Origin: Dehalococcoidia bacterium
Lineage (GTDB): Bacteria; Chloroflexota; Dehalococcoidia; Bin125
Direction of reading: 5' to 3'
NCBI GenBank assembly: GCA_965203775.1
Contig: OZ241913.1
Coordinates: 2,832,015-2,896,014 of the forward strand
Length of the DNA: 64,000 nucleotides
The notes beneath the pieces are model-generated. The model had not been told where the DNA came from, did no database searches, and saw only the letters and a program-made list of their open reading frames with translations. Position 1 is the first letter of the stretch. Each line of letters opens with the position of its first letter. Shown one piece after another: positions 138-40,860 of this stretch. Made by a program: the position numbers and the translations under genes.

Positions 138-496
138 CGTCGCGCCCCGCCAGATTCAGCCCTCTGCGCCCGATTCATCACCCCGGCAAGGGGAGGTGAA
201 GGCGGGACGCGGCGAGTGGGCGACGACGGTGTTCAGATTTTGTTTTTTCGCGTGTTCGGAGGTGATTCGAGGGGCGGTCCTATCTGGTCGAGGGGCTTGG
301 CGATGTTCAGGTTTGTTCGGATTTGTTCGGGTTTGTTCGGAGGTGATTCGGGGGTGAACCGGCGTGGAGAGTCGCGCCTGGGGTGTGGGGCTGGGTGGGC
401 ATTGCTCGCACTTTCGTTCTGCTAGGGTATGGTAGCACGGTTGGGGGGAAGTGGGGGTTTGAGGGCGCGTCGGTTCCTGCCTGCGCAGGAATGACG

Positions 497-8620: not shown

Positions 8621-8627
8621 AGCGAGT

Positions 8628-11537
8628 ATGGCCGCGCAGCCGACCCAGACGACGATGACGATCGAGCCGTCGATGAGCGTCGACGAGTTCGTTGCCAAGT
8701 GGCGCAACGCGGCGCCGCGCGAGCGGGCCAACTCGCAAACTCACTTCAACGATCTCTGCGCCGTGCTCGACGTCGCCACGCCCGTCGAGGAAGACCCCAG
8801 CGGCGAGAGCTACACATTCGAGAAGCACGTCGATCTGCCCGGCGGCGGCAGCGGCGACGCCGATGTCTGGAAGCGCGGGCACTTCGGCTGGGAGTACAAG
8901 TCGGGCGGCAAGAGCCTCAGCGTCGCCTACGAGCAACTGCTGGGCTACCGCGAGGGGCTGGAGAACCCGCCGCTGCTCGTGGTCTGCGACATGAACCGCT
9001 TTGAAATCCATACCAACTTCACCAACACCGAGCCGCGCGTGATCGAGTTCACGCTCAAGCACCTGGAAGAAAATCCCACCCACTACATTCGGCTGCTGCG
9101 CGAGGTGTTTCTCGATCCCGAAGCGCTGCACCCGAATCGCGACCCGCGCTATATCACCGAAACCGCCGCAGCAAAGTTCGGCGAGGTGGCCGAGGCGCTG
9201 CGCGAGCGCGACGGGCACGACCCGGCGCTTGTCGCCCGCTTCCTCAACCGAATCATCTTCTGCTTCTTCGCCGAAAGCGTCGGCCTGTACCGCAATCTGC
9301 GCGGGGCAATCGAGAAGCCGGTCACCGATGTGTTCGACAACATGTCGGCCGACGCGACGCTGTCCAAACGGATCGTGGGGCAACTCTTCGAGGCGATGGC
9401 GGAACGCGACGTGCGCAACTTCGGCGCCTACTACATCCGCTGGTTCAACGGCGGCCTGTTCGACGAAACGGCGGTGCCCGAGACGTTGCAGCTGACGGGC
9501 GATCTGGCGCAGATCATCAACGAGACGGCGGAGTTGAACTGGTCGCGGGTGGATCCGGCGATCTTCGGGACGCTGTTCGAGCGCGGGCTGGATCCCAAGC
9601 GCCGCTCGCAGCTGGGCGCGCACTACACCGATCCGGACAACATCATGCGCGTGGTCGAGCCGGTCGCGCTGCGCCCCCTGCGCCGCGAATTCGACGCGCT
9701 GCGCGCCGAACTCGCGCCCGAACACAGGCTCGAAGACGCGCCGCCGCCCGGTTACGGCGAGAACAGCGCGCTGGCTTTCGAAGCGCCCGACCCCGACTCC
9801 CCCGCCGGGCGCATCCACGCCTTCCACCAACGCCTCGCGGCGGTGCGCGTGCTCGACCCCGCCTGCGGCTCCGGCAACTTCCTCTACATCGCAATGCGCG
9901 AGCTGAAAAACCTCGAACAGGAACTGATCGAGTGGGCGCAGCGCCTGGGCGTCAACGGCTTGCAGCGCCGCATCGGCCCCCAAAACATGCTCGGCATCGA
10001 TATCGACCCGTTCGCCGCCGACCTCACCCGTATGTCGCTCTGGATCGGCTACATCCAGTGGAACATCGAGCGAAACATCGACACCACCCGCGACCCCGTC
10101 CTCGGCCGCGCCGAGCAAATCGAATGCCGCGACGCCATCCTCGCCGAGGATGAGGAGGGCAACCCCATCCCCGCAGAGTGGCCCGAAGCGGAGTTCGTCG
10201 TGGGGAATCCGCCGTTTCTGGGCGGAAACCGATTACGCCGCGAGAGCGGCAATGCGTACGTTGACCGTCTTCAATCTGCCTACGCCAACGCCGTAGGCGG
10301 ACAAGCCGACCTTTGCGTCTATTGGCACGAGAGCGCTCGACGACAGATCGAGCAGCGCGCCACCCGCGCTGCTGGCCTCCTTGCCACGAACAGCATAGGC
10401 CAACCGTACAACCGCAAGGTCCTCGAGAACATCGCATCATCGGGAGGCATGTTCTTCGCGTGGCGTGATGAGCAGTGGTTCGACGACGGTACTGCCGTCC
10501 GCATTGCCATCGTCGGCCAAGACGACGGCAGCGAATCGGAACTCGAGCTCGACGGATCGCCAGTCGCCAAGATCAACCTCGATCTGACCGCAGGCGTCCC
10601 GGTTGCGTCAGCTGTGGAACTGGCTGAAAATTCCTCTATCGCGTTTCGGGGTGTTGGGCCTGCTGGACCATTTGACATCTCCTGGACCATTGCCGGGCGC
10701 ATGCTGGCGCGTCCCGTCAACGTGAATGGACGCCCGAATTCCGATGTGGTGATCCCGTTCGTCAACGCTCAAGACCTGGCGCAGACACGGCGGGGACAGC
10801 ACGTCATCGACTTCGGTCAGAGTACATCTATCGAAGACGCGGCTGACTATGAGGAGCCGTTCGAGTACGTGAGGCGACACGTTCTGCCGCGCCGCAAGCG
10901 CAGCAGGAACGACCAACTGCGCAACCAATGGTGGCTCCACGAGGCTTGGCGTCCCGGGATGCGCAAGGCGATCCAGCCGCTCAGTCGCTTCATTGCCACG
11001 CCAGTGACTTCCAAGCACCGCTTCTACGTGTGGCTGGATGCTGGCACACTGCCTGCCAGCTCAGTCAACGTCATAGCTCGTGACGACGACTACATATTCG
11101 GGGTTCTGCACTCGCGAATCCACCACGTTTGGGCTCTTGCGCAGGCAACACGCCTCGGTGTCGGGCCAGCAGACTCCCGCTACATCCACACTCGGTGCTT
11201 CAACACATTTCCGTTCCCTTGGCCACTGACGGCGTCCAACGATGATCTTACGGCCACTCAGCGACGGCAGCACAAAGCGATCTCCGCCGCGGCTGCATCG
11301 TTGGACGCAGCACGCACCCAATGGCTTAACCCCAGTGATGCGCCAGCGGAGCTCGTGCAAGAGCGCACGATGACCGACCTCTACAACGACACCGAAAAAG
11401 ATCCTCGCCCAAAGTGGCTGACCAACAGGCACCAGGCGATCGACAAAGCAGTGGCAGCCGCCTACGGCTGGCCCGCCGACCTGCCGGATGATGAAATCCT
11501 GTCCCGCCTGCTAGCCCTGAATCTGGAGCGCGCCTGA
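8628..11537 (+). CDS. MmeI-family type IIL restriction-modification enzyme (fused PD-ExK nuclease + gamma N6-adenine MTase + TRD), 969 aa
   Basis: Colinear with MmeI: nuclease D..EYK (HVDLPGG...FGWEYKSGGK vs MmeI VDLFW...LIEMKSRG); helical region (RIIFCFFAESVG); motif X (PAIFGTLFERGLDPKRRSQLGAHYTDPDNI vs PAIFGSLFQSIMDAKKRRNLGAHYTSEANI); motif I (VLDPACGSGNFL); motif IV (VVGNPPFLGG); C-terminal TRD. The start lies 8 bp after the gatB stop. Confidence 0.85.
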   Translation: MAAQPTQTTMTIEPSMSVDEFVAKWRNAAPRERANSQTHFNDLCAVLDVATPVEEDPSGESYTFEKHVDLPGGGSGDADVWKRGHFGWEYKSGGKSLSVAYEQLLGYREGLENPPLLVVCDMNRFEIHTNFTNTEPRVIEFTLKHLEENPTHYIRLLREVFLDPEALHPNRDPRYITETAAAKFGEVAEALRERDGHDPALVARFLNRIIFCFFAESVGLYRNLRGAIEKPVTDVFDNMSADATLSKRIVGQLFEAMAERDVRNFGAYYIRWFNGGLFDETAVPETLQLTGDLAQIINETAELNWSRVDPAIFGTLFERGLDPKRRSQLGAHYTDPDNIMRVVEPVALRPLRREFDALRAELAPEHRLEDAPPPGYGENSALAFEAPDPDSPAGRIHAFHQRLAAVRVLDPACGSGNFLYIAMRELKNLEQELIEWAQRLGVNGLQRRIGPQNMLGIDIDPFAADLTRMSLWIGYIQWNIERNIDTTRDPVLGRAEQIECRDAILAEDEEGNPIPAEWPEAEFVVGNPPFLGGNRLRRESGNAYVDRLQSAYANAVGGQADLCVYWHESARRQIEQRATRAAGLLATNSIGQPYNRKVLENIASSGGMFFAWRDEQWFDDGTAVRIAIVGQDDGSESELELDGSPVAKINLDLTAGVPVASAVELAENSSIAFRGVGPAGPFDISWTIAGRMLARPVNVNGRPNSDVVIPFVNAQDLAQTRRGQHVIDFGQSTSIEDAADYEEPFEYVRRHVLPRRKRSRNDQLRNQWWLHEAWRPGMRKAIQPLSRFIATPVTSKHRFYVWLDAGTLPASSVNVIARDDDYIFGVLHSRIHHVWALAQATRLGVGPADSRYIHTRCFNTFPFPWPLTASNDDLTATQRRQHKAISAAAASLDAARTQWLNPSDAPAELVQERTMTDLYNDTEKDPRPKWLTNRHQAIDKAVAAAYGWPADLPDDEILSRLLALNLERA

Positions 11538-25284: not shown

Positions 25285-25429
25285 GGCGGTCGCTCCAAGA
25301 GCGAGATTATGAGCCAAACGGCAAGTGGTCAAGCCCGCGCGCCACAAAGCCGCGGGAGCTTGCCGGCTCACCCCAAGCCTCCACTCGCCCCTTCCCCAAT
25401 TCATCCCTCCCCCCTTTTAGGAGTCTCCT

Positions 25430-25522
25430 GCAAAATGCCCAATTTCGGCGGATCCGCCGATCAGGCTCTATCTGGTCGGCACCCGCGTGCAGGCCCCAGA
25501 TCTGCCTTTTGCAGGAGACTCC
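25430..25522. other. ~93-nt structured element X1, inserted in the loop of a family-B hairpin (candidate ncRNA or novel MITE)
   Basis: Perfect 16-bp terminal inverted repeat ggagtctcctgcaaaa/ttttgcaggagactcc. The core cccaatttcggcggatccgccgatcaggctctatctggtcgg is shared with X2 at 39322..39425. It is flanked by a duplicated cttttag. Confidence 0.5.
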
Positions 25523-25612
25523 TTTTAGGGGGGAGGTTAGGTGGGGGGTGGGAGGTAGCGAGTGGGCGCACCGATCGTGTCCGCTCCTCCGACCCCCAAG
25601 GGTTTCGCAATT

Positions 25613-25750
25613 CCGTCATTCCTGCGCAGGCAGGAACGCGCGCTAGGTGCGGCCTCGTCCTGCGATGGGCGTTCGGCGGGCCGTCGCGGGATGCGCAGCG
25701 CATGCAGGCGCTAGCGGCCGCCCCCATTCCTGCCTGCGCAGGAATGACGG
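25613..25750. mobile_element. MITE-1 copy a (138 bp, family-A 25-bp terminal inverted repeats)
   Basis: ccgtcattcctgcgcaggcaggaac + ~90-nt internal (gcgcgctaggtgcggcctcgtcctgcgatgggcgttcggcgggccgtcgcgggatgcgcagcgcatgcaggcgctagcggccgcc) + ttcctgcctgcgcaggaatgacgg. Two more copies at 37589..37727 and 38795..38933. Confidence 0.7.
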
Positions 25751-26628
25751 GATGGGGGGGCGCAGGAATGACGGAGGGGGAGGAGAGGGGGTAGGAATGC
25801 TGGAGGTGGGGTGGCGTGGTTCCTGCCTGCGCAGGAAATGACGGCTTGCGCGGTTCCTGCCTGCGCAGGAATGACGGGAGGGGGGACGCAGGAATGACGG
25901 GAGTGTGGATGCGCTCTGGAGGGGTGCGGGGAGGAGAGCGTGGGCGGCCACTCGATCGCTGGTGGCGGCTCGGTGCTTCCCACCCCCCACCTAGCCTCCC
26001 CCCTAAAAGGGGGGAGGGATGAATTGGGGAAGGGGGGAGAGGGGTGGGGGTGGTTCCTGCCTGCGCAGGAATGACGGGTGGCGCGGTTCCTGCCTGCGCA
26101 GGAATGACGGAAAGGGGGGGGGGGGGGGCGCGGGAATGACGAGTGAAGGGGGGCGAGGGATGTACGGATGGTGGCCGCTCGGTGCCTCCCACCCCCCACC
26201 TAACCTCCCCCCTTTTAGGGGGGAGGGATGAATTGGGGAAGGGGGAGGGTGGGTGGTTCCTGCCTGCGCAGGAATGACGGTTTGCGCGGTTCCTGCCTGC
26301 GCAGGAATGACGGAAGGGGGCGCGCAGGAATGACGGAAAGGGGGGCGCAGGAATGACGGGAGTGTGGATGCGCTCTGGAGGAGTGGGGGGAGGAGTGTGG
26401 GCGGCCACTCGATCGGTGGTGGCGGCTCGGTGCTTCCCACCCCCCACCTAGCCTCCCCCCTAAAAGGGGGGAGGGATGAATTGGGGAAGGGGGGGTTCCT
26501 GCCTGCGCAGGAATGACGGGCGCGCCGCCGCGCCCACTCCTGCGCTTGCGCGGTTCCTGCCTGCGCAGGAATGACGGGAAGAGGGGCGCACGAATGACGG
26601 GCGCGCCGCCGCGCCCCCCACTCGCGGG

Positions 26629-29600
26629 CTAGTTGCCTAGCACGATTACGGAGCCGGGGGCGATTTGGAAGTTGGTGGCGCCGGGGATGGGGATGCCGGC
26701 GATCACGTTGTAGCGCAGCCAGACGCCGTCGGAGCGCCAGAAGAGCACCGAGTTGATGCCCAGCAGCTCCGCGACCAGCTCCGCCGCGCTGATTGGCTCG
26801 GCGCCCAGCCAGGTGTTGAAGCCGACGATTGCGCGGTTGCCCAAGTCGCCCGCGACGCCCGGCAGGGGCGGCGGCGGGGCCGTTGCGCCGTTGGGCAGGG
26901 GCACCGTGAGCAGCTGCACGTCGCTCACCGCGCACTGCGAGGTGCGCGCTTCCGCCGCGCCCGGCGCGTCTTCGGCGGCCGTGTCAGCGGCCGCCTGCGC
27001 GCCGCAGTTTGCGCCCGCCGTGACCACCACGCTGCCCGGCGTCACGACCAGATAGCTCGCCGTCGCCTGGCCGTCGGTGGTTGTGCGCTGGCGGGTCAGC
27101 TCGACGAGCACGACCGCGGCGCCCGTGGGCGTGCTGGACCACTCAACCGGCGTGCCGTTGGGCACCCGCGCGTCGTTCGCGTCGGTCAGCGTCGCGGTGA
27201 CCGTCAGCTGGTCGCCCACGCTGGGCGCGCCGTCGGGCGCGCTGAGCGCGACCGCCGCGGGCGGCCCGGCGACCATGAAGGTCTGCCGCCCGGTCAGCGA
27301 GCCGGCGCGCAACTCGATGGTGTACTCGCCGTTGGCCAGCGGCTGGGTCGACGCGCGGTTGACGTTGATTCGCACCTGCTCGTTGCGGTTGCCGTCGAGC
27401 GTCGGGCTGTCCGCCCCGCCCAGCGGCCACTCCACCGTCACGCCGCTGCTGACCAGCTTGCCGTCGGGATCGAGCACCCGCGCCAGCGAGCGGCCCGAGG
27501 GCAGCGCGACTTTCATCCCGTTCTCGTCGGCTGCGGTGACCGCCAGCGTCAGCTGGTCGCGGTGGTCGGTGTCGGTGCCGGCTTCTTCCGCACCTTCCGT
27601 CGATTCGGCGTTGATGTTGAGCACGCCGCTCTTGGGCGCGGCGATGCCGACTGAATCGGCGCTGCCCAGGAACATCACGGTGATCGGGCCGGCGGTGAGC
27701 GCTTCGCCGTTGTCCTTGGTCAGCCGCACGCGCAGCTCGGCGCTGCTCGCCGTCGAGCCGCCGGGGTGGGTGATGGTGACGTCGATCTTGTCCGAGTTGG
27801 CGCTGGTCAGCGACGCGACGGGAATTTGGCAGATCAGCCCGCCGCTGTTGCGGCAGCCGCTGCCGATGGTGGTGCCGAGCGAGCCGGCGCTGGTGGTGAC
27901 GAAGATGGTGTTGATGGTGGCGGGGGCGGAGGCGGTGCCGCCCTCGTTGAGCACCTTCAGCCGCAGCCGGGTGCTCTGGCCGGTGGCGATGCTGGACGGA
28001 TACGGCTGGCCGCGCCGCGCCACGACCGTCTGCTCGGCGAAGCCGAACTGCAGCGCCGCGACCTCCTCGAACGTGGCCGGATCGATCACCTGCACGGCGT
28101 AGGCTTCCGACTTGACTTCGGCGCCGTTGATGTTGAGCGTGCCGGAGATGGCGAAGTCGCCCAGCTCCGCGCCGGCGGGGATCACGATGTCGGCGTTGCC
28201 CAGGTCGATCGAGCAGGTCCACAGCGTGATGCCGGTATCGCCGGAGCCGCGGCACTCAGCGCCGCCGGTCGTCCAGTCGCTCGCGCTGGAGCCCACGAAG
28301 CCCTGGCCAAGCGGCATCTGCTCGCGGAGCAGCGCGGCGCGCGAGCGCGCCGTCACGCCCGGTATGCCCGTGTAGGTGTTGCGCCCCGTCGCCTCCCACT
28401 CGAGGTCGCCGGCGATCCGCAGCGTGCCGCCCGTCACATGCAGCGCCGAATCCAGGCCGTCGCCCGGACCGCTGAAGGTCAGCACGCCGCGCAGCCGCGC
28501 GGTCGAGCCGACCGCCGCCATGTTGTCCGAATCGTCGGCCAGCCGCAGGCTGAACGCCAGATCCTCGGGCAGCGCGGCATACTCCTCGCCGACGTTGAAC
28601 CACGCGATGTCGATCGGGTGATCATGGCGAGTCCGGATCGTTTGGTCGAACGTCTGCTGGAAGATGCCGCTCCCTACGGTCACGGTCCTGGTGTACGAGC
28701 TGCCGCGACGGGCAATCACGTAGCCCTGGCCTGCGGCGTCGACGTCAAAGGTGTACTCCGCTTTGCCGGCGGGATCGTCGCCGCCCAGCGTCGGCGTTGT
28801 CGAGTATGTGATGGTGCCGTCGCCGTACTTCGAGAGCACCGTCTGGCCGGCCGTCGCCGGAACGCCGCCCTCGTCCCAGAACACGTGGCTGCCATCCGGC
28901 ACCGGCTCGCCCTCGGCGTCGGTCAGCGCGGCGGTCAGCTTGATGGTGGAGGTGTCGTCCGGATCCAGGAGCTGCCAGCGCTCCTGCCCCGTCGCTCGCT
29001 CCAATTCGAGGCCGACCGTCGCTCCATCGCCGGTCGCGGCGGTCTGGTCCGTCTCGAAGTAGACGGAGGCGCTGGCGTCGCCGGCGCTGGCGATCACCAG
29101 CACTTTGTTGTTGCTGGCCTGCGTTGGGACGCGCGCGAACGTGGCCTCGGCGACGCCGCCGGTGGTGGTCTGGTCGGCCGCGCTGGCCCGCCACAACTCC
29201 GCATCCAGCTCTGCCGCTCCGCTGAAGCCGATCGCCCGCCAGGCGACGGGCGTGCTGTCGGGCATGGCGCCGCCGTTGGCGTCGGTCACCAGCGCCTGGA
29301 CGGTGAAGCGGCCCGAGGTGCGGCGCTGCTCGAGGGGCGCGACGACCCAGACGCGGCCCGGCTCGGACAGCACCGCGGAGGCGGTTTGGCCGGTCTCGAC
29401 ATCGAGGCTGTCGCTTGCCGGATCGCGCGTTCCGGCGACGGCCGTGGCCGTGATCGTGACGCTGCCTTCGGAGAGCACGCGGAAGACGCCCCAGGCGCGT
29501 CCGTTGCTGTCGGTGCGGGTGGTCTGGAAATTGCCCCTCGCCTCGACGATGCAGGGCTGGACGGGGCACGTGACGGGATCACCCGACTCACCCGTGGCGG

Positions 29601-29955
29601 CCACCTGCCAGGTCACCGTTGCGCCGTCGGCGTAGTCGGGGACGAGCACTCCCTCGTCCTCGCGGCCGGCCTTACAGACGCGGAAACCGCCTGGTTCTGC
29701 AGCGTCGCCGCTGCATTCTAAGGTCGAGCCGGTCTGCACCCGCGCTTCGACGTAGAAGTAGCTCCAGAGGGCGAGCGAGCCGACCGGCTCGCTAAGTGTG
29801 ACTGTCGCCGGGGCGACTCGAATCTGCTGCGCGCCCGCGCCGGGCGAGAGGGCGAGCAGGGCGGCGGCGGCCAACAGCGCGAGCAGCGCCGCCGACACCC
29901 AACGCGCTCCCCCCCCCGCCACGGCGGAACCGGCTCGTTTGACAGGCAGCATCAA
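26629..29955 (-). CDS. giant secreted protein with multiple bacterial Ig-like (Big/invasin-like) domains, 1108 aa
   Basis: Signal peptide MMLPVKRAGSAVAGG...LLALLAAAALLALSPGAGAQQ. Recurring ~90-aa beta-rich repeats (…LTVTATLTDANDARVPNGTPVEWS…). The C-terminal ~65 aa are shared with the proteins at 33689..37249 and 62370..>64000. Confidence 0.75.
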   Translation of the reverse strand: MMLPVKRAGSAVAGGGARWVSAALLALLAAAALLALSPGAGAQQIRVAPATVTLSEPVGSLALWSYFYVEARVQTGSTLECSGDAAEPGGFRVCKAGREDEGVLVPDYADGATVTWQVAATGESGDPVTCPVQPCIVEARGNFQTTRTDSNGRAWGVFRVLSEGSVTITATAVAGTRDPASDSLDVETGQTASAVLSEPGRVWVVAPLEQRRTSGRFTVQALVTDANGGAMPDSTPVAWRAIGFSGAAELDAELWRASAADQTTTGGVAEATFARVPTQASNNKVLVIASAGDASASVYFETDQTAATGDGATVGLELERATGQERWQLLDPDDTSTIKLTAALTDAEGEPVPDGSHVFWDEGGVPATAGQTVLSKYGDGTITYSTTPTLGGDDPAGKAEYTFDVDAAGQGYVIARRGSSYTRTVTVGSGIFQQTFDQTIRTRHDHPIDIAWFNVGEEYAALPEDLAFSLRLADDSDNMAAVGSTARLRGVLTFSGPGDGLDSALHVTGGTLRIAGDLEWEATGRNTYTGIPGVTARSRAALLREQMPLGQGFVGSSASDWTTGGAECRGSGDTGITLWTCSIDLGNADIVIPAGAELGDFAISGTLNINGAEVKSEAYAVQVIDPATFEEVAALQFGFAEQTVVARRGQPYPSSIATGQSTRLRLKVLNEGGTASAPATINTIFVTTSAGSLGTTIGSGCRNSGGLICQIPVASLTSANSDKIDVTITHPGGSTASSAELRVRLTKDNGEALTAGPITVMFLGSADSVGIAAPKSGVLNINAESTEGAEEAGTDTDHRDQLTLAVTAADENGMKVALPSGRSLARVLDPDGKLVSSGVTVEWPLGGADSPTLDGNRNEQVRINVNRASTQPLANGEYTIELRAGSLTGRQTFMVAGPPAAVALSAPDGAPSVGDQLTVTATLTDANDARVPNGTPVEWSSTPTGAAVVLVELTRQRTTTDGQATASYLVVTPGSVVVTAGANCGAQAAADTAAEDAPGAAEARTSQCAVSDVQLLTVPLPNGATAPPPPLPGVAGDLGNRAIVGFNTWLGAEPISAAELVAELLGINSVLFWRSDGVWLRYNVIAGIPIPGATNFQIAPGSVIVLGN

Positions 29956-30644: not shown

Positions 30645-31166
30645 CTAGCCGGCGGATGCTTCGGCCTCCTGCTCGCGGCGGTCGGCGCAGCGTCGGGCGG
30701 CGCGGCGGTAAGGCTGGTTGTCGGGCGGAGCGAGGTCGAGCGGCAGCGTGCGGTGGGCGTCGTCGAGCATTGCGCAGAAAGACTGGATGGTCGGCACCCA
30801 GAAGCGAATGTCATCCGGGTACTGAAGGTCGTCGTAGAAGTTCAGGTGCAGCCGTTCGGCGGCGGCGAAGCTGCGGCTGAGCTCGGGCGAGTCTGTGCCG
30901 AGCGCCTCGTCGATGCGCCGCACCAGCTGGTGGGCGATGCCGTGCTCGCAGTAGTACCACTCGCGGGCGTCCGCGAACACTCTGAGCCGGCGAGTGACTG
31001 CGCCCCACAATTTCTCGCACACTTGGGCGCGGAGTTCGCCGTCAATCTCTACATCCGGCCGCGCGAGGATCTCTTCTGCGGCGGCGAGCAGTCCGTCGCT
31101 GGTGCGGAGGTGCGGCTCAATCGGTGGCTGGGGCGGGCGGTAGGGGATTGGTTCGGGGGTGGGCAT
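30645..31166 (-). CDS. paralog-array protein 1 (173 aa), uncharacterized family with HEPN-like R-x6-H motif
   Basis: MPTPEPIPYRPPQPPIEPHLRTSDGLLAAAEEILARPDVEIDGELRAQVCEKLWGAVTRRLRVFADAREWYYCEHGIAHQLV.... Its start shares 1 nt with the stop of the upstream paralog (TAATG). Confidence 0.7.
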   Translation of the reverse strand: MPTPEPIPYRPPQPPIEPHLRTSDGLLAAAEEILARPDVEIDGELRAQVCEKLWGAVTRRLRVFADAREWYYCEHGIAHQLVRRIDEALGTDSPELSRSFAAAERLHLNFYDDLQYPDDIRFWVPTIQSFCAMLDDAHRTLPLDLAPPDNQPYRRAARRCADRREQEAEASAG

Positions 31167-31678
31167 TACTGCGCCTCCTGCGCGCGCCGGTCGGCGCAGC
31201 GTCGGGCGGCGTTGCGGTAACGCCGGCTGCTGGGTGGGGCCAGGTCGAGCGGCAGCCTGCGGTGGGCATCGTCAAGCATCGCGCAGAGGATCTGAACGAT
31301 TGACATCTGGCGACGGATCGCCGCCGGCTCCAGAAGGTCGTCATAGAAATTTCTATGCAGCTGTTCGGCGACGGCAAAGCCGCGGGTGAGTTCGGGCGGA
31401 TCGGGCTCAAGCGCCTCGTCAATGCGATCCACCAGATCGGCCGCGACGCCGTGTTCGCAGTAGTACCACTCCCGCGCATCCGCGAAGACCCGCAGGCGGC
31501 GAGTGACGGTGCCCCACAGTTTTTCGCAGGCTTGGGCGCGGAGTTCGCCGTCGATCTCGTCGTCGGGGCGGGCGAGGATCGCCTGCGCGGCGGCGAGCAG
31601 GCCGTCGCTGGTGCGGAGGTGCGGCTCGATGGGCGGCTGGGGCGGGCGGTAGGGGATTGGTTCGGGGGTGGGCATCAC
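31166..31678 (-). CDS. paralog-array protein 2 (170 aa)
   Basis: ~75% identical to array protein 1. Translationally coupled (GTGA/ATGA overlaps) on both sides. Confidence 0.7.
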   Translation of the reverse strand: MMPTPEPIPYRPPQPPIEPHLRTSDGLLAAAQAILARPDDEIDGELRAQACEKLWGTVTRRLRVFADAREWYYCEHGVAADLVDRIDEALEPDPPELTRGFAVAEQLHRNFYDDLLEPAAIRRQMSIVQILCAMLDDAHRRLPLDLAPPSSRRYRNAARRCADRRAQEAQ

Positions 31679-32208
31679 GTCGCCTCCTGCGCGCGCTGGG
31701 CCTCCTCTTGCGCGCGCCGGTCGGCGCAGCGGCGGGCGGCGCGGCGGTAAGGCTGGTTATCGGGCGGGGCGAGGTCGAGCGGCAAGGTGCGGTGGGCGTC
31801 GTCGAGCATCGCGCAGAGGGTTTGGACATTCGGCATCCGGAGGCGAATGTCATCCGGGTGCTGAAGGTCGTCGTAGAAATTCACGTGCAGTCGTTCGACG
31901 GCTTCGAATCGGAAGAGGAGTTGAGGCGGATCGACGCCGAGCGCCTCATCGATGCGATTCACCAGTTGATGCGCGATGCTGTGTTCGCAGTAGTACCACT
32001 CGCGGGCGTCGGCGAACACCCGCAGGCGGCGGGTGACGGCGCCCCAGAGCTTTTCGCAGGCCTGGGCGCGGAGTTCGCCGTCGATTTCGTCGTCGGGGCG
32101 GGCGAGGATTGCTTGGGCTGCCGAGAGCAGGCCGTCGCTGGTGCGGAGGTGCGGCTCGATCGGTGGCTGGGGCGGGTGGTAGGGGATTGGTTCGGGGGTG
32201 GGCATCAT
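31675..32208 (-). CDS. paralog-array protein 3 (177 aa)
   Basis: Same family, with a 4-nt start/stop overlap. Confidence 0.7.
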   Translation of the reverse strand: MMPTPEPIPYHPPQPPIEPHLRTSDGLLSAAQAILARPDDEIDGELRAQACEKLWGAVTRRLRVFADAREWYYCEHSIAHQLVNRIDEALGVDPPQLLFRFEAVERLHVNFYDDLQHPDDIRLRMPNVQTLCAMLDDAHRTLPLDLAPPDNQPYRRAARRCADRRAQEEAQRAQEAT

Positions 32209-32717
32209 CGCGCCTCCTGTGCGCGCCGCTCGGCGCAGCGGCGGGCGGCGCTCTTGTAGCGGCTGTTGTCGGGCGGGGCGAGGTCGAGCGGCAATGTGCG
32301 GTGGGCGTCGTCGAGCATCGCGCAGAAGGACAGCACGCTCCGCATCCGGAAGCGAATGTCATCCAGGTCCATGAGGTCCTCGTAGAACCCCTCGCGGTGC
32401 AGCCGTTCGGCGCTGTCGAATCTTTCGACGAGTTCGGGCGGATCGAGATCAAGCGCCTGGTTGATGCGATTCACCAGCTGGCGTGCGATGCTGTGTTCGC
32501 AGTAGTACCAGCGGCGCGCGTCGGCAAACACCCTGAGGCGGCGGGTCGCCGCGCCCCACAATTTCTCGCACACTTGGGCGCGGAGCTCGCCGTCGATTTC
32601 GTCGTCGGGGCGGGCGAGGATTGCCTCGGCGGCGGCGAGCAGGCCGTCGCTGGTGCGCAGGTGTGGCTCGATGGGCGGGCGGGGCGGGTGGTAGGGGATT
32701 GGTTCGGGGGTGGGCAT
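32205..32717 (-). CDS. paralog-array protein 4 (170 aa), first gene of the array
   Basis: Same family (MPTPEPIPYHPPRPPIEPHLRTSDGLL...ARRWYYCEHSIARQLV). It is preceded by a repeat island. Confidence 0.7.
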   Translation of the reverse strand: MPTPEPIPYHPPRPPIEPHLRTSDGLLAAAEAILARPDDEIDGELRAQVCEKLWGAATRRLRVFADARRWYYCEHSIARQLVNRINQALDLDPPELVERFDSAERLHREGFYEDLMDLDDIRFRMRSVLSFCAMLDDAHRTLPLDLAPPDNSRYKSAARRCAERRAQEAR

Positions 32718-32749
32718 CGCTGCTCCTGTTCGGCAGGGCGCATGGGCAG

Positions 32750-32890
32750 CGTATCACCGCGCGTTCCTGCCTGCGCAGGAATGACGGGGAGGAGGGGCAG
32801 GAATGACGATTGGGGGGCGCGGGTTCCTGCCTGCGCAGGAATGACGGGGAGGGGCGCGCGGTTCCTGCCGGCGCAGGAACCAACGGAGGC
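32750..32890. repeat. short repeat island (family-A units)
   Basis: Four family-A copies: gttcctgcctgcgcaggaatgacgg. Confidence 0.8.
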
Positions 32891-33688: not shown

Positions 33689-36600
33689 GTGAAGCTGATC
33701 CACACCGTTCTCGGGGGGGGGGGGGATACCGCCCGCCTGCTCGCGCTGGCTTCGCTGCTGGCGCTGCTCGCCGCGGCGCTGCTGCCGCTCGCGCCCGCCG
33801 CCGCCGACGGGCACCCCGACAGCCTCGGGCTGGAACTGGCGCTCAGCCTCGACGACGACTCCGACAACATCGTCCAGGCCGGCAGCGAAATTACGGTCAA
33901 GGCCGAGCTGCGCTTTCCCTGGCAACGCGCCACCGCGCCGCCCGCCGAGCTGCCCAGCTACACCGCCTATTCGCTCGATGTGCCGGCCGCCTCCGTGGCC
34001 GCTTCCAATCTGCGCATCAGCGGCAATCTGGAGTGGGACAGCGCCGGCCGCCGCCGGTTCGACATCCCCGCCCACTCGCCGCTGAACTCCGACCTGCCCT
34101 GGCCGCCCGTCACCAACCAACTCATGATCAAGGGGCTCGACGGGCGCACCCTCATCGCACGCGACAACCGCACCAGGATCCACATCTACGACTCCTACAC
34201 GCTCGAGTACAAGACGACGCTCGCCCCGCCGCCCGGCGCGGACACCCACCACAACAGCGGCTTCGGCGCTTCCGTCGCCTACAACTCCCGCAGCTTCGGC
34301 GCATGGTTCGGCAAGGCGATCGCCGTCTGGCACGAAACCGAGGACCGCGCCTGGCTGTTCGTCGGCTCCTGGGGCGACACCGTGGAATCGCACGGCGGGA
34401 TGGGCCGGCTTTACATCTACCGGCTGGACTGGGACGGTGACAGCGTGACGGCGACGCAGGAAGCCGCCCTGGCGCCGACGCTGGCCGAGGCCAATAACCG
34501 CCACGGCACCGCCGTCGCCCACTACGGCGCAGCCGTCGATCTCTCGCGCGACGGCGGCACGCTGGCGGTCAGCGCCACCCGAATGAACGTGATGGGCGCG
34601 GTCTACGTCTACACCCGTCCCGACGGCGCGGGCGAAGACTGGGGCGACATCACCTACGCCGACGGGGTCAAGGTGACCGTCGGCGCGGTGCCGTCCTTTG
34701 GCACCACCCAGTCGAACATGCCGTTCCTGCCCAACACGGCCTACAGCGCGAGCAACCCGCGCTCCTGCGGCGACTGGTGCGCGATGGTCTGGTCCAGCGT
34801 GGCGACGAGCGGCTACGACGGCGTCGACCTCGGCGCGCAGCGGGTGTCGCTCTCGGCCGACGGGAGCGTGCTGCTGGTCGGCGCGGGCGAAAAGGAGCAC
34901 CCGGTAACCAGGCCGTACTCCAGCGGCAACCGGAAGGACAACGCGGGCGAGGCGTTCGTCTGGGTCGCGCCCGAGGGCGGCTGGGCGAACGCGCCGCGGG
35001 CGGACCTTGACGCCAACGGCAACGCCAAGACGCTGATCGCGGCCAAGACCGACGCGACCGCCTTCCGCCGCGCGACGCACTACTCGCCCGGCCCGCTGCG
35101 CCGGGTGACCGAGCCCGCCGCCGTGCTGGTCGCCGCCGACTGGCCCAACCCGGGCAACGGCTACTTCGGCCTCGACGCCGTGATCTCGCCCGACGGCTCC
35201 ACCGCCGTTGTGGCGGGCGATCTCGTTCACGTCTTCCAGCGCGACTCGGCGAGCGATTGGGCCAGCGCCAACGGCGGCTACCGCGGCTACCTGGCGCCCA
35301 GCGCCACGCTCGGCAACACCGGGGAGGCGGCTTCCGCGACGATGCAGTTCAGCTTCGACGGGAGCGAGCTGGCGATCGGCCTGGTCGCGCATTCGAGTCC
35401 GTCATGGAGAGTCGGTGCGATCCGGGTCTTCTCCCGGCCGGAAGACGGGACCTGGGCCAGCACCAGCGCATCGAGGCTGTTGCAGGAGCGGGATGGCGTG
35501 AGGAGCGGCAGCGCGAGGTACGGCAATGTCGTCCCGGAGCTCACCGGCCGGCGCGTGGCGATCGGCACTCAAGCGGCGGGGCGCAACTATCTGAACACGC
35601 TGACCGCGCGCCGCTGCACGCTGCGCACGCTCGACGGCATCACCACCGCCACTTGCCCGATCTATTTGCCCAACTCCACGATCATCATCCCCGAGGGCAC
35701 GCCCGACGGGCCCGTCAGCATTCAGGCAACCGTCGCCCTGCGGCTGGCCGCGACCACCCGGGAGATGCCGACGACCGTGACGCTGAGCGACACGCTGGAG
35801 TTGACGGTCGGCGAGGTCGATGAGTTGACCGAGGTGGAGTTTGATTTCGCCACGGACACGCGGGGCGACAGCGATTCATCGAATGATCGTCCCTATCCGG
35901 GCGCGATCGCGGCGGGGGAGAGCACGACGCTGCTGCTGAAGCTGCTGAACGAGAACGGCAAGGCGGCGGCGAAGGGCGCGGCGGCGTCGGTGCTGTTCAC
36001 CACCAGTTTGGGCAAGCTGAGCGCGAAGCTGGGCGGCGCCGACGCGGAGGCCTGCACCGCAGGCGGCGGGCAGACCTGCCGCATCGCCACCCCGGCGACG
36101 GCGCTGACGGCGAGCAATTCGGATCAGATTCGGCTGACGGTGGAGCATCCGGGGGCGGGCCGGAGCGGCGCGGTGCTGGTGCGGGCGAATGTGCTCGCGA
36201 GCGACGGGGAGAGTTTCGCGGCGGAGCCGATTCGGCTGATTTTCAGCGGTTCGGCCAGCGCGATCGCGCTCTCCGCGCCGACCCGCGGGGTGCTCAGCCA
36301 CGACACCTGCGACGCGCCGGCGTCGGACGGCCCGGACGGCTGCAAGGTGGCGGGCGATCGGGATGATCGCGATGTGCTCACGCTGGAGGTCACGGCGACG
36401 GACGCGGCGGGCAACAAGGTGGCGGTGCCGAGCAGCGGCTACGGGGCGACGAAGATCACGGGGCCGGACGGCAAGCGTGTGCCCGACAGCGCGATCGCGG
36501 TGACCTGGCCGCTGCGCAAGGACGGCGACGACGCCGGCGCGGAGATCGGCAATAACGATCCGCTGGACACCAGTCTCGGCGGGGCGCCGCAGGCGCAGCT

Positions 36601-37249
36601 CAACGTCAACGCCGCGCAGTCCGCGCAGCTGCCGGCGGGCGAATACACGCTCGAGTTGGGCGTGGGCGCGTTGAAGGCGAGCCAGACGTTCAGCGTGAGC
36701 GGCGCGCCGGCCAGCGTGACGCTGATCACGACGCTGGCCGAGCTGTCGGTGCGGGACTCGTTCACGGTGCGCGCGCGGATTCTCGACGCGGGCGGGGCGG
36801 CGGTGCCGGACGGCACGCCGGTCAGCTGGAGCGCGACGCCGATCGGCGCGGCGTCGACGCTGGTCGAGACGGCCAGCGAGCGTCGGACGACGGGCGGGCA
36901 TGCGGAGGCGAGCTATCTGGTGGTGGCGCCGGGCCGCACTTCGCTGCGGGTCGCCGCGGGGGCGGCGGCGGAGCTGGCGCTGATCGAGGTGGCCGGCCCG
37001 CCCGCGCCGCCGATCCGCCTGGCGGATTTGCTGGCCAGCCCCAACCCGCTGGGCAGCAACATCTGGTTCGGCGACTTCTTCATCCGCGCCTCCGCGCTGC
37101 TGCGCGAGCTGCCCGACGCGGACGTGGTCCACGTCTGGCAGGGCAACCGCTGGTACCGCTACAGCGAGGTGGAGGGCGAGCAGGGCGAGGAGTCGATCGA
37201 TTTCACGATTCCGCCGAACGCCATCCTCTGGTTCGGGGATGATGATTAA
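33689..37249 (+). CDS. giant secreted protein: FG-GAP/beta-propeller-like N-terminal repeats + Ig-like (Big) domains + shared C-terminal domain, 1186 aa
   Basis: GTG start and signal peptide (LLALASLLALLAAALLPLAPAAADG). FG-GAP-like segments (LSRDGGTLAVSAT...GAVYVYTRPDG; LSADGSVLLVGAGE; ISPDGSTAVVAGDLVHVF). Big-like repeats (LTVEHPGAGRSGAVLVRANVLASDGESFAAEPIRL). The C-terminus aligns with 26629..29955 and 62370... Confidence 0.75.
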   Translation: MKLIHTVLGGGGDTARLLALASLLALLAAALLPLAPAAADGHPDSLGLELALSLDDDSDNIVQAGSEITVKAELRFPWQRATAPPAELPSYTAYSLDVPAASVAASNLRISGNLEWDSAGRRRFDIPAHSPLNSDLPWPPVTNQLMIKGLDGRTLIARDNRTRIHIYDSYTLEYKTTLAPPPGADTHHNSGFGASVAYNSRSFGAWFGKAIAVWHETEDRAWLFVGSWGDTVESHGGMGRLYIYRLDWDGDSVTATQEAALAPTLAEANNRHGTAVAHYGAAVDLSRDGGTLAVSATRMNVMGAVYVYTRPDGAGEDWGDITYADGVKVTVGAVPSFGTTQSNMPFLPNTAYSASNPRSCGDWCAMVWSSVATSGYDGVDLGAQRVSLSADGSVLLVGAGEKEHPVTRPYSSGNRKDNAGEAFVWVAPEGGWANAPRADLDANGNAKTLIAAKTDATAFRRATHYSPGPLRRVTEPAAVLVAADWPNPGNGYFGLDAVISPDGSTAVVAGDLVHVFQRDSASDWASANGGYRGYLAPSATLGNTGEAASATMQFSFDGSELAIGLVAHSSPSWRVGAIRVFSRPEDGTWASTSASRLLQERDGVRSGSARYGNVVPELTGRRVAIGTQAAGRNYLNTLTARRCTLRTLDGITTATCPIYLPNSTIIIPEGTPDGPVSIQATVALRLAATTREMPTTVTLSDTLELTVGEVDELTEVEFDFATDTRGDSDSSNDRPYPGAIAAGESTTLLLKLLNENGKAAAKGAAASVLFTTSLGKLSAKLGGADAEACTAGGGQTCRIATPATALTASNSDQIRLTVEHPGAGRSGAVLVRANVLASDGESFAAEPIRLIFSGSASAIALSAPTRGVLSHDTCDAPASDGPDGCKVAGDRDDRDVLTLEVTATDAAGNKVAVPSSGYGATKITGPDGKRVPDSAIAVTWPLRKDGDDAGAEIGNNDPLDTSLGGAPQAQLNVNAAQSAQLPAGEYTLELGVGALKASQTFSVSGAPASVTLITTLAELSVRDSFTVRARILDAGGAAVPDGTPVSWSATPIGAASTLVETASERRTTGGHAEASYLVVAPGRTSLRVAAGAAAELALIEVAGPPAPPIRLADLLASPNPLGSNIWFGDFFIRASALLRELPDADVVHVWQGNRWYRYSEVEGEQGEESIDFTIPPNAILWFGDDD

Positions 37250-37254
37250 GGGGG

Positions 37255-38005
37255 GGTCATTCCTGCGCCTCTCTCCGTCATTCCTGCGTAGGCAGGAACC
37301 CCCCGATCGCCCCCGCACCCGTCATTCCTGCCTACGCAGGAATGACGGGCGATTTCCCCAATTCATCCCTCCCCCCTTTTAGGGGGAGGTTAGGTGGGGG
37401 GTGGGAGGCCGCGAGCGAGCGCCGGCCGCCCGTTCGCGCCGCGCTCGCTTCCCCCCGTTCCGTACATTCCTGCCCCTTCTCCCCGTCATTCCTGCGCAGG
37501 CAGGAACCCGCGCGACCCCACCGTCGTACTCCTCCCCCCTCCGTCATTCTGCGCCCCTCCCCCGTTCCGTACATTCCTGCCCCCCTCTCCGTCATTCCTG
37601 TGTAGGCAGGAACGCGCGGTGGGTGCGGCCTCGTCCTGCGGTGGGCGTTCGGCGGGCCGCCGCGGGATGTGCGGCGCATACGGGCGCTAGCGGCCGCCCC
37701 CCATTCCTGCCTACGCAGGAATGACGGAATAGGCGATCGGGGTACAGAAGAGCGGCCGGCAAACGCTCGCACCTCCCACCCCCCACCTAACCTCCCCCCT
37801 TTTAGGGGGGAGGGATGAATTGGAGAAGTCAACCGTCATTCCTGCGTAGGCAAGGAGCCAGGGGAGGGGTCGCGCGGTTCCTGCCTGCGCAGGAATGACG
37901 GTGGGGTCGCGCAGGTTCCTGCCTGCGCAGGAATGACGGTGGGATCGCGCAGGTTCCTGCCTGCGCAGGAATGACGGGAGTCTGGACACGCCCTAGCCGG
38001 GGGAG
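37255..38005. repeat. intergenic repeat island (includes MITE-1 copy b at 37589..37727)
   Basis: Family-B hairpins at ~37370 and ~37790; family-A units; a MITE-1 with a TIR variant (cctgtgtaggcaggaac). Confidence 0.8.
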
Positions 38006-38009
38006 GCCA

Positions 38010-38507
38010 TCACTGCGCCTCCCGTGCGCGACGCGCGGCGCGGCGGTAACGCTGGCTGTCGGGCGGAGCCAGGTCCAGCGGCAAGGTGCGATGGGCCTCA
38101 TCGAGCATCGCGCACAGAGCTTGAACATTCGGCATCTGACGACGGATCCTTGCCGGCCTCAGAAGGTCGTCGTAGAAATTCACGTGCAGCCGTTCGGCGG
38201 CGGCGAACCTGACGCTGAGCTCGGGCGGGTCGGGCTCAAGCGCCTCGTCGATGCGATCCACCAGCTCGCCCGCGACGCCGTGCTCGCAGTAGTACCACTC
38301 GCGGGCGTGGGCGAAGACTTTGAGCCGGCGCGTCACCGCGCCCCACAGCTTCTCGCACACTTGAGCGCGGAGTTCGCCGTCGATCTCCGCGTCCGAGCGG
38401 GCGAGGATTGCGGCGGCTGCCGCCAGCAGGGCGTCGCTGGTGCGGAGGTGCGGCTCGAGGGGCGGCTCTGGGGGGAGGTAGGGGATTGGCTGGGGGCTGG
38501 CCATCAC
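38010..38507 (-). CDS. fifth member of the paralog-array family (165 aa), stand-alone copy
   Basis: MMASPQPIPYLPPEPPLEPHLRTSDALLAAAAAILARSDAEIDGELRAQVCEKLWGAVTRRLKVFAHAREWYYCEHGVAGELV.... Flanked on both sides by repeat islands. Confidence 0.65.
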   Translation of the reverse strand: MMASPQPIPYLPPEPPLEPHLRTSDALLAAAAAILARSDAEIDGELRAQVCEKLWGAVTRRLKVFAHAREWYYCEHGVAGELVDRIDEALEPDPPELSVRFAAAERLHVNFYDDLLRPARIRRQMPNVQALCAMLDEAHRTLPLDLAPPDSQRYRRAARRAREAQ

Positions 38508-38529: not shown

Positions 38530-39545
38530 TGGGCAGCGTATCACCGCCTGGGGGGCTGTTCGTCGCTTCTGCGCCCCTCTCCGTCATTCCTGCGCAGGCA
38601 GGAATGACGGGCGCCTTCCCCAATTCATCCCTCCCCCCTTTTAGGGGGGAGGTTAGGTGGGGGGTGGGAGGCTGCGAGCGAGCGCCGACCGCCCGTTCGC
38701 GCCGCGCGCTCAAAATCGTCATTCCTGCGCAGGCAGGAACCGCGCGACCCCACCGTCGTACCCCTCCCCCCACCGTCATTCCTGCGCCCTCTTTCCGTCA
38801 TTCCTGCGCAGGCAGGAACGCGCGGTGGGCGCGGCCTCGTCCTGCGATGGGCGTTCGGCGGGCCGCCGCGGGATGTGCGGCGCATACGGGCGCTAGCGGC
38901 CGCCCCCCATTCCTGCCTGCGCAGGAATGACGGAAAATGGCGCAGGAGTGACGGAGAGAGGGGGTAGGAGTGACGGGGAGAGAGGGGGTAGGAGTGACGG
39001 AAGAAGCAGGAGTGACGGGGAGAGAGGGGGTAGGAGTGACGGAATTGTGAAGCCCTTTGGGGGTTGGGGGAGTGGACACGATCGGTGCGCCCGCTCGGTA
39101 CGTCCCACCCCCCACCTAACCTCCCCCCTAAAAGGGGGGAGGGATGAATTGGGGAATTCAACCGTCATTCCTGCGTAGGCAGGAAGCCAGGTGTGTGCGC
39201 GCGCGGGTTCCTGCCTGCGCAGGAATGACGGAATTGCGAAGCCCTTGGGGGTCGGGGGAGTGGACACGATCGGTGCGCCCGCTCGGTACGTCCCACCCCC
39301 CACCTAGCCTCCCCCCTAAAAGCAGACCTTCGCGTAACCCCCAAATTCGGCGATGCAGGCCGATCGCCTCTATCTGGTCGGGTTGTCCACCACACAGCGA
39401 AATTCGGGGTTGCGCGAAAGTCTGCTAAAAGGGGGGAGGGATGAATTGGGGAAGTCGCCCGTCATTCCTGCGGAGGCAGGAAGCAGGGGTGTGAGTGCGC
39501 AGGTTCCTGCCTGCGCAGGAATGACGGAATAGGCGCGTGGATGCC
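38530..39545. repeat. intergenic repeat island (includes MITE-1 copy c at 38795..38933 and element X2 at 39322..39425)
   Basis: Family-B hairpins at ~38630, ~39110, ~39300 (interrupted) and ~39420. Tandem ggtaggagtgacgg units at 38960-39040. Confidence 0.8.
39322..39425. other. ~104-nt structured element X2, inserted in a family-B hairpin loop (candidate ncRNA or novel MITE)
   Basis: Closing stem gcagaccttcgcg/cgcgaaagtctgc (13 bp, different sequence from X1 but still complementary). Shares the core ccaaattcggcg...gccgatcgcctctatctggtcgg with X1. Flanked by ctaaaag duplicated. Confidence 0.5.
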
Positions 39546-39558
39546 GATGGTTGCGTGC

Positions 39559-39855
39559 TTAGCTGGCGTCTTGGACGCGCTTGCCGGAGTCTACCAGGTT
39601 GGCGAAGCGGGTGCGGCTGAGGGGGTCGTTGCGGGCGGCTTTTTCCCAGGCGGCGTCTACCATCTTGGCGTACTTGGGGTGCATCTCGCGCATTTTGGTC
39701 TTTTCGTCCTTGATGAAGGCGCTGCTCGCGATCAGGCGCTCGACCTGGGCGGTCTCGCCGCAGGACTCGCAGGGCGGGGCGTCGGCCCCGATTTTGCGCT
39801 GGAACTTCTCGAACTCCACGCCGCAGGCGCGGCAGGCGTATTCGTAGATCGGCAT
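39559..39855 (-). CDS. FmdB-family zinc-ribbon putative regulatory protein
   Basis: MPIYEYACRACGVEFEKFQ...PPCESCGE...: the YEYxCxxCG...CxxCG FmdB signature. Confidence 0.7.
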   Translation of the reverse strand: MPIYEYACRACGVEFEKFQRKIGADAPPCESCGETAQVERLIASSAFIKDEKTKMREMHPKYAKMVDAAWEKAARNDPLSRTRFANLVDSGKRVQDAS

Positions 39856-39954
39856 CGTCGGCCTCCATCCGCCACGCGCGCGTCGGGCATGCGCCGCGCG
39901 GCTGCTGCGATGGTACGCTCATTGGCGTTCCCGCGTGAACAGAGAGGTGCTGCG

Positions 39955-40860
39955 ATGGGCGGCTACGGGGTGCGGACGGTCTTCCTGATGGTGCTGATGG
40001 CGGGTCTGCTGATGGTGATCGGCTACGCCTTCGGCGGCACGACCTGGCTGATCATCTTCGGGGTGATCGCGATCGCGATGAACTTCTTCTCCTATTGGAA
40101 GTCGGATTCGATCATCCGCACGGCGATGGGGGCGCAGGAGGTGACGGCGCAGCAGCAGCCGATGCTGCACCGGATCGTGGAGCGCGCGGCGGTCGACGCC
40201 GAGTTGCCCAAGCCGAAGATCTACGTGGTCGACACGCCGGTGCCCAACGCTTTCGCGACGGGTCGCAGCCCGAAGCACGCGGCGGTGGCGGCCACGACGG
40301 GGATCATGAGCATCCTGACCGAGCGAGAGTTGGCCGGGGTGATGGCGCACGAGATGGCGCACGTGAAGAACCGCGACACGCTCTGGAGCACGATGGTGGC
40401 GATGATGGCCTCGGTCATCATGCTGGTCGCAATGCTGGCCAAGTGGTCGCTGATGCTGGCCTTTCTGTTCGGCGGGATGGGCGGCAACAACGAGCAGGGC
40501 GGCGGCGTGGGTCATCTGGCGGCGATGCTGGTGCTGGCGTTCGTCGCGCCGGTGATCGCGGGGATGATTCAGATGGCGGTGAGCCGTCAGCGGGAGTACG
40601 GGGCGGACGAGGCGGGGGCGCGCAACTCGCGCGATCCGCACGCGCTGGCGAGCGCGCTGACCAAGCTGCAGGCGGCCAGCCAGTCGCCGCAGGCGCGCCA
40701 CGCGGCGGAGGAGATGGCGACGGCGGAGGTGGCGAATCATCTGTTCATCGTCAATCCGCTGGCGGGCGGCGCGGGCAAGTGGTTCAGCAGTCACCCGCCG
40801 ACGAAGGATCGCGTGGAGCGGCTGCGCCAGTTGGGCCGCGAAATCGGGCAGATTTTCTAG
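39955..40860 (+). CDS. htpX: zinc metalloprotease HtpX (M48 family)
   Basis: HEMAHVKNRD (HExxH), two N-terminal TM helices, C-terminal ...FSSHPPTKDRVERL. RBS agagagg upstream of the ATG at 39955. Confidence 0.85.
   Translation: MGGYGVRTVFLMVLMAGLLMVIGYAFGGTTWLIIFGVIAIAMNFFSYWKSDSIIRTAMGAQEVTAQQQPMLHRIVERAAVDAELPKPKIYVVDTPVPNAFATGRSPKHAAVAATTGIMSILTERELAGVMAHEMAHVKNRDTLWSTMVAMMASVIMLVAMLAKWSLMLAFLFGGMGGNNEQGGGVGHLAAMLVLAFVAPVIAGMIQMAVSRQREYGADEAGARNSRDPHALASALTKLQAASQSPQARHAAEEMATAEVANHLFIVNPLAGGAGKWFSSHPPTKDRVERLRQLGREIGQIF

Follow-up and report, generated by a model that had tools for sequence, protein, structure and literature searches.

Two elements of about 100 nt, X1 and X2, each interrupt a repeated intergenic hairpin in its loop within the window (the whole 64,000-nucleotide stretch of Dehalococcoidia DNA analyzed here), and this arrangement raises the question of what kind of entity they represent. 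An earlier note had taken their conserved interior and compensatory stem changes as the signature of a structured RNA, possibly a noncoding RNA (ncRNA) gene or a ribozyme-like mobile element, rather than of a simple transposon with terminal inverted repeats. The window has a G+C content of 68.5%, and its intergenic DNA is dense in two repeat families, A and B. When uninterrupted, the core of family B is a hairpin, CCTCCCCCC-TTTTA-GGGGGGAGG, and the site that receives X is the tip of this 9- to 10-bp G/C stem, where the loop is invariably T-NNN-A. A scan of the window for CCCCCC-N5-GGGGGG recovered 24 pattern matches (0.03 expected) and 22 intact B hairpins, with 24 intact hairpins recovered by a looser 5+5 scan; within the window, B hairpins are split at just two places, the X1 and X2 sites (25409 and 39311). 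Across ~290 kb of related loci, we found 72 intact B-like hairpins; each split one contains an X element, and no insert other than X splits a B hairpin in these loci.

The B loop occurs in several variants (TTTTA, TAAAA, TGGAA, TTCCA, TCCCA, TACCA, and TGGCA), and some copies carry it flipped with respect to the asymmetric flanks (window positions 26207-26223 and 37794-37810; compare 25998-26014), which suggests loop inversion inside the palindrome. Family A (CCGTCATTCCTGCGCAGGCAGGAAC; form CCGTCATTCCTGC-N4-GCAGGAATGACGG) is a CGTC-tagged, REP-like palindrome found at dozens of sites in the window (e.g., 25610-25643, 39162-39231, and 37275-37348) in alternating, BIME-like arrays (compare PMC3733652 for such an arrangement). 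A related genome (OZ241849.1) has a different REP variant, CCGTCATACCCGCG..., where the window has family A.

Both elements split a B hairpin in the loop and are flanked by duplicated CTTTTAG or CTAAAAG just as had been described, the 7-mers being exact on both sides of X1 and of X2. The boundaries proposed for them need correction: X1 starts at 25420/25421 instead of 25430, and the X2 arms, previously given as a 13-bp stem, reach 28 bp with 4 mismatches. The features of the two loci are as follows.

25406..25536, unstranded: B hairpin hosting X1 (CCTCCCCCC at 25406-25414, GGGGGGAGG at 25528-25536)
25414..25420, unstranded: left target copy of X1, CTTTTAG (closing C, loop TTTTA, closing G)
25421..25521, unstranded: X1 element, subfamily 1, 101 bp under a 7-bp duplication (alternative limits 25420-25522 under one of 5 bp)
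25420..25435, unstranded: X1 left arm, GGAGTCTCCTGCAAAA, 16/16 paired with 25507-25522
25468..25478, plus strand: X1 central motif, CTATCTGGTCG, offset 49 of 103
25507..25522, unstranded: X1 right arm, TTTTGCAGGAGACTCC
25522..25528, unstranded: right target copy of X1, CTTTTAG
39308..39439, unstranded: B hairpin hosting X2, in the orientation opposite to that of the X1 host hairpin
39316..39322, unstranded: left target copy of X2, CTAAAAG
39323..39424, unstranded: X2 element, subfamily 2, 102 bp (alternative limits 39322-39425 if the duplication is 5 bp)
39322..39349, unstranded: X2 left arm, 28 bp, 4 mismatches relative to the right arm
39370..39380, plus strand: X2 central motif, CTATCTGGTCG, offset 49 of 104
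39398..39425, unstranded: X2 right arm
39425..39431, unstranded: right target copy of X2, CTAAAAG

The cores of X1 and X2 point in the same direction although their host B units face opposite ways. BLAST within the window aligned them over a common core of 44 nt (84% identity; E = 4e-5), in keeping with the conserved interior that had been claimed, except that CCCCAAATTCG, which was counted as part of that core, belongs to the X2 arm.

We then searched ~290 kb of related loci by using a covariance model built from X1 and X2 together with BLAST. X is present in six copies in ~290 kb, two of which were found through a targeted motif search; the four copies other than X1 and X2 come from related genomes and do away with the possibility, entertained in the earlier note, that only two exist. 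The copy in L006 (chromosome OZ241849.1) is 100% identical to X2 over 106 bp and lies in a TGGCA loop, at a locus unrelated to that of X2 and in the opposite orientation relative to B. The two genomes with identical X2 copies diverge by 2-18% in shared genes, and the 106-bp identity in the face of this divergence points to a recent spread of X2. X3 (L024 13589-13690) is of the X1 type (93% identity) and lies outside a B hairpin; it has no clean duplication, its flanks having only GTG in common, or ATGTG versus GTGTG. X4 (L027, from ~6732) is likewise of the X1 type, sits in a B loop (TTTTAG joined to GAGTC...), lies in the orientation opposite to that of X1, and is truncated by the contig end. 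X5 (L028, ~3119-3220) represents a third subfamily, lies in a B loop with TGGAA duplicated, and has perfect arms of 18 bp (AGACCTTTGAAAAAGTCC and GGACTTTTTCAAAGGTCT). Hence, five of the six copies occupy B loops, and the expectation that every copy would sit in such a loop with a duplication breaks down only for X3. For subfamilies 1 and 2 alike, copies occur in either orientation with respect to the asymmetric flanks of B.

Beyond these loci, a scan of species-representative genomes for the core recovered one true copy (that of L006) and five chance matches in coding DNA, and all 14 loci recovered in a metagenome scan for the core were chance matches in coding DNA. Viral contigs yielded no match to the X core or to the motif of a second repeat, Y (see below), and a plasmid collection yielded no BLAST match to X. 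X is a lineage-restricted element of low copy number, and its hosts are a small clade of uncultured bacteria with ~69% G+C and genomes of 3.2-3.5 Mb.

A sister genome preserves the state of the sites without X. Locus L021 is colinear with the window over ~25.3-48 kb at ~93-96% identity, and its orthologous X1 site (~160-200) reads ...aattcatccctcccccc-tttta-ggggggaggttaggtgggggg..., i.e., an intact hairpin with the same flanks and a single 7-mer; the X2 site (L021 15560-15600) is also occupied by an intact hairpin. As these sites are empty with the hairpin intact, X1 and X2 are real and recent insertions. In L024, the hairpin downstream of the P0011 gene is uninterrupted, and its left flank equals that of the X4 site in L027. 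L022 and L026 were considered as empty sites and rejected, since the repeat block itself is absent there.

The sequence that flanks X follows its target: the repeats are CTTTTAG (X1), CTAAAAG (X2), CTGGCAG (L006), and CTGGAAG (X5), corresponding to duplicated loops TTTTA, TAAAA, TGGCA (in the X2-type copy of L006), and TGGAA, respectively. Because the duplicated bases vary with the target, the duplication arises at insertion and is a genuine target-site duplication. The insertion-like character attributed to X1 and X2 is thus borne out by a target-derived duplication, by orthologous empty sites in L021, and by other duplicated loop bases elsewhere. The closing pairs of B are equally possible as ends of the element, and the length of the duplication can therefore lie anywhere between 3 and 7 bp; a 3-bp duplication would leave ends of the form AG...CT, one of 5 bp G...C, and one of 7 bp variable ends, the ends being best conserved under the 3-bp model. 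The idea that all copies have one and the same duplication length was considered and rejected, since no model of 3, 5, or 7 bp accommodates X3 alongside the copies at B sites.

We next compared the arms and the centre of the element. The five full-length copies align nearly gap-free over 104 columns. The arms, which are 16-28 bp long in the three subfamilies, are paired at 16/16, 18/18, and 24/28 positions. Over 20 arm pairs, 11 are changed on both sides across subfamilies and 93.6% of the cells are paired, versus 32-49% in a control in which the partner was slid by 1-3 columns; the closing stem therefore does covary, as had been proposed. The accompanying statement that the terminal stems differ completely was too strong, given that they align without gaps and are identical at 7-10 of 20 positions between subfamilies (~35-50%). 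X elements are 100-104 nt long, and C-CTATCTGGTC lies at their exact centre in all three subfamilies (offset 48-49 of 102-104 nt), its position being constant within 1 nt. This centre is identical at 10/10 positions, while most of the interior flanking it cannot be aligned from one subfamily to another. Once the third subfamily is added, the conserved core shrinks to ~10-12 nt, C-CTATCTGGTC.

X resembles a MITE in being smaller than ~500 bp, in lacking coding capacity, and in having terminal inverted repeats, a target-dependent duplication, and both filled and empty sites. However, the terminal repeats of a MITE are its conserved part, whereas in X the arms retain only those 7-10 of 20 positions and the centre all 10 of 10. 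The pattern of conservation is thus reversed relative to that of a normal MITE: the arms, which are the expected target of a transposase, diverge, and the centre is invariant. Arms that are diverged but complementary need three cognate transposases, very loose recognition of the ends, or recognition of shape.

The only invariant sequence of X is also found in Y, a conserved intergenic block of ~130 bp that is separate from X and of which related loci contain at least 11 copies. The recurrence of an 11-mer at ~278, mentioned in the earlier note, belongs to the window copy of this block and is located at 280-290.

215..345, plus strand: repeat Y copy in the window, with TCCTATCTGGTCGAGG at 278-293, adjoining GTTC repeats with a 10-bp period
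L023 8609 and 9103, L024 13980, L026 9691: other Y copies, first set
L028 2838, 14413, and 19792, L029 14413 and 19783, L030 14577 and 20144: other Y copies, second set

The sole invariant stretch of Y is CCTATCTGGTCG; after it come GGCGTT and four or five copies of GTTC that recur every 10 bp. A shuffled X1 had an 11-mer in common with the Y block in 0.55% of the trials (chance, ~0.0055). A motif common to X and Y is most simply a DNA site for some protein, and we interpret the central motif as a putative protein-binding site. The motif also occurs inside genes for large (~1,150-aa) proteins, where it encodes S-Y-L-V, a match that is regarded as coincidence. Readings of the motif as a sigma-54, IHF, or dif-like site were rejected by eye, as none fits across the subfamilies. 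Y additionally includes a T-rich tract, and some copies are followed by a promoter-like TTCGCA-N16-TATGGT. In L024 (13800-13900), about nine TTGACA-containing repeats (GGTTGACA; period, ~11-12 bp) lie between X3 and a Y copy.

One explanation would grant the centre no function at all, with X1, X2, and X5 being ordinary MITEs derived from three related insertion sequences (IS) and with the centre and its match in Y resulting from descent or chance. Arms homologous at ~35-50% are what diverged relatives would show, and MITEs frequently originate from one IS end by fold-back, an origin under which perfect arms would arise without selection. We nevertheless consider such a history unlikely: the centre has stayed identical amid a neighboring interior that is largely unalignable, its position has remained constant to within 1 nt, and the same 11- to 12-mer constitutes the invariant block of the unrelated Y, for which the above chance of ~0.0055 applies.

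The interpretation of X as a structured ncRNA gene or ribozyme-like element, in which the centre would be the RNA core, the arms its closing helix, and mobility secondary or achieved via RNA, has several observations in its favor. The covariation of the closing helix is strong, but since the arms of a DNA transposon are inverted copies by construction, compensated changes in them cannot separate RNA from DNA. X folds are also far more stable than those of shuffled sequences (z = -4.5 to -8). For the motif-sense strand, RNAalifold predicts an interior helix that depends on G-U pairs and brings together columns 23-32 and the motif's 3' half; 4/9 of its pairs are compensated in three lineages, as tested on the same four sequences from which it was derived, and 85% of its cells are paired, versus 28-47% when slid (on the same four sequences). 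Within this helix, a G-to-A change in the X5 motif is matched by a change of C to T. The motif-sense strand is antisense to adjacent genes in 5/5 decidable copies (not significant at n = 5; two-sided p, ~0.06), and in 4/4 copies the RNA fold of the opposite strand is better by 1.3-7.2 kcal/mol, a strand bias that would fit cotranscription.

Several results weigh against this interpretation. A search of the whole window with Rfam at the gathering threshold gave no match to X, and at an E value of ≤10, both X loci matched only generic long-hairpin miRNA models (27 bits, versus cutoffs of 77-200); consensus scans of X detected no sigma-70-type promoter or intrinsic terminator. The interior structure comes from the very sequences on which it was tested and differs between strands, RNAalifold giving a different and poorer one for the other strand, and the hairpins visible inside X1 and X2 display no covariation. 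The absence of copies from sister genomes indicates that they are dispensable, the target-following duplication points to integration at the DNA level, and the occurrence of the motif in Y, in another context, is easier to reconcile with a DNA site than with an RNA fold. We therefore do not retain the preference for an RNA over a transposon with terminal inverted repeats, and we regard an RNA gene or ribozyme as improbable. A hammerhead-like reading of CUGAUC...GAAA in X1 was rejected by eye, as G8 and A9 of the hammerhead core are absent, and X2 lacks the CUGAUC...GAAA motif altogether. A small open reading frame (ORF) in X was also rejected because the reading frame of the core shifts between X1 and X2.

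Another alternative holds that X is specified by its shape and might move as a folded single strand, comparable to attC sites or the substrates of HUH nucleases, with B also being recognized in folded form. Consistent with this, the arms maintain complementarity without maintaining sequence in three subfamilies, while the length and the place of the motif stay fixed; the target, too, is a hairpin loop; and the Y motif beside GTTC repeats of 10-bp period resembles iterons with a nick site. However, seven bases are duplicated in four different target contexts, whereas single-strand/HUH and tyrosine recombinase systems are not known to leave a target duplication. Moreover, no HUH or integrase gene is found near any copy, the sole Phage_integrase match being an ordinary Xer-like gene in L026. 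On balance, transfer of this kind, which is proposed by analogy alone, appears doubtful. Put in more general terms, X may be a 100-nt hairpin that is recognized by its shape, as folded DNA or folded RNA, and not by the sequence of its ends, and that enters a second hairpin at its loop; the invariant motif at its apex, which it has in common with Y and the iteron-like GTTC arrays there, would potentially act as the binding or nicking site of one enzyme serving both repeat families. We give this a small chance only; if true, it would amount to hairpin-into-hairpin transposition, a mechanism other than DDE end recognition and those of IS200/IS605, IS110, and integrons. The divergent arms and fixed centre leave some room, at long odds in either case, for shape recognition or for an RNA or single-stranded stage.

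We favor, with a probability of roughly 0.6, the reading of X as a non-autonomous, foldback MITE-like transposon that targets hairpin loops and contains a central protein-binding site. We infer that a transposase acting in trans would make staggered cuts across the tip of the B hairpin, C-T-NNN-A-G, where X would be joined in either orientation, and that gap repair would leave 3-7 bp (the loop, either alone or together with its closing pairs) duplicated. The recognized target would be the palindromic B hairpin, which would account for both the precision of insertion and the lack of an orientation preference. The 16- to 28-bp arms would need only mutual inverted complementarity, and the motif would be a site for a mobilization factor or for a host DNA-binding protein that recognizes Y as well. 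No transposase domain was detected in the window genes scanned against Pfam or among the genes of those loci that were retrieved with gene calls, and no longer element with X-type arms was found in the window or the fetched loci. If the MITE-like reading is correct, X is a recently active miniature transposon that homes to a repeated hairpin loop, a behavior so far documented for full-size insertion sequences. Arms that drift while remaining complementary around a fixed centre raise the question of what the mobilizing enzyme reads, and the motif common to X and Y provides a candidate site for protein identification in an uncultured lineage whose intergenic DNA is unusually dense in repeats. 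With one small clade and few copies, the wider impact is limited unless shape recognition proves true.

Among the known systems closest to X are the bacterial MITEs (such as Correia/NEMIS of Neisseria, RUP, ERIC, and CIR), which are ~100-200 bp long and have transcripts that fold as long stem-loops (PMC2229807). X is like them in being small and noncoding, with terminal inverted repeats, target duplications, and filled and empty sites. Some members of this group have an internal motif: the 155-bp Correia element contains an IHF site, and CIR contains a conserved GANTC (methylase) site (PMC2229807). The central motif of X parallels both. In Correia, RUP, ERIC, and CIR, however, the terminal repeats are conserved and the duplication is usually TA, whereas in X the arms diverge around an invariant centre and the duplication is the 3- to 7-bp tip of a specific hairpin. 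The copy number of X (six in ~290 kb) also appears to be low.

With regard to the target, IS1397 inserts in the loop of palindromic units with a 3- to 4-bp duplication. More broadly, REP palindromes serve as targets for insertion sequences from five families (PMC1525189), including IS1397 and ISKpn1 (IS3 family), ISPsy8, ISRm22 (IS4), and IS621, ISPpu9, ISPpu10, and ISPa11 (IS110) (PMC1525189; PMC3184786). X has in common with these elements the specific insertion into repeated extragenic palindromes, but they are autonomous, 1-1.5 kb long, and encode a transposase, whereas X is 100 bp long without an ORF. IS110-type elements share only a dinucleotide with their target and have no long inverted repeats, in contrast to the 16- to 28-bp arms and 7-base flanking repeat of X; the TG...CA ends of the IS3 family are not matched by those of X under any of the duplication models (AG...CT, G...C, or variable). 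The ssr9 module of ISPpu9 in Pseudomonas putida is a small RNA that uses the transposase of the IS for its selfish spread into REP (PMC12288879). Like X, ssr9 is small and noncoding and lands in a repeat palindrome, but it has conserved A'/B' boxes in place of self-complementary arms and integrates at an AG dinucleotide without a multibase duplication. Its partner IS is known, whereas none was found for X in the window or the fetched loci.

The attC sites of integrons are hairpin elements in which structure is conserved while sequence is variable. Their recombination, however, entails no target duplication, uses conserved R and L boxes at the base of the stem, and needs IntI, none of which is seen for X. 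The PATEs of IS200/IS605 and REP/RAYT systems insert 3' of a fixed tetra- or pentanucleotide without duplication and have noncomplementary ends, whereas X has a target-dependent duplication and complementary ends. The combination of long complementary arms and a target-following duplication thus makes X unlike the IS110, IS200/IS605, and integron elements.

The genes of the window include two large ones that are flanked by dense repeat blocks: one for a 1,108-aa protein with a single Big_1 domain (26629-29955, minus strand) and one for a 1,186-aa protein without a Pfam match (33689-37249, plus strand), whose family is represented by several paralogues in each of about ten related genomes. Small genes form a tandem array at 30645-32753 (minus strand) and 38010-38507 (minus strand); those at 32205-32717 and 38010-38507 match the archaeal PaREP1/PaREP8 family, and the orthologous array in L021 comprises five PaREP1/PaREP8-type genes. 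Farther away are a gene for an MmeI-like type IIL restriction-modification fusion protein (8559-11537, plus strand) and two adjacent genes of the Uma2 family of putative endonucleases (53959-54627 and 54662-55330, both on the minus strand), a family that recurs in related loci. A 439-aa ORF at 39541-40860 (plus strand) is a high-G+C artifact; the calls in related genomes place here a 98-aa Zn_ribbon_8 protein (minus strand, 39559-39855) and an M48 peptidase of 301 aa (to 40860). Two other genomes match this region at 98.2% identity, whereas their DNA next to it is only 82-94% identical.
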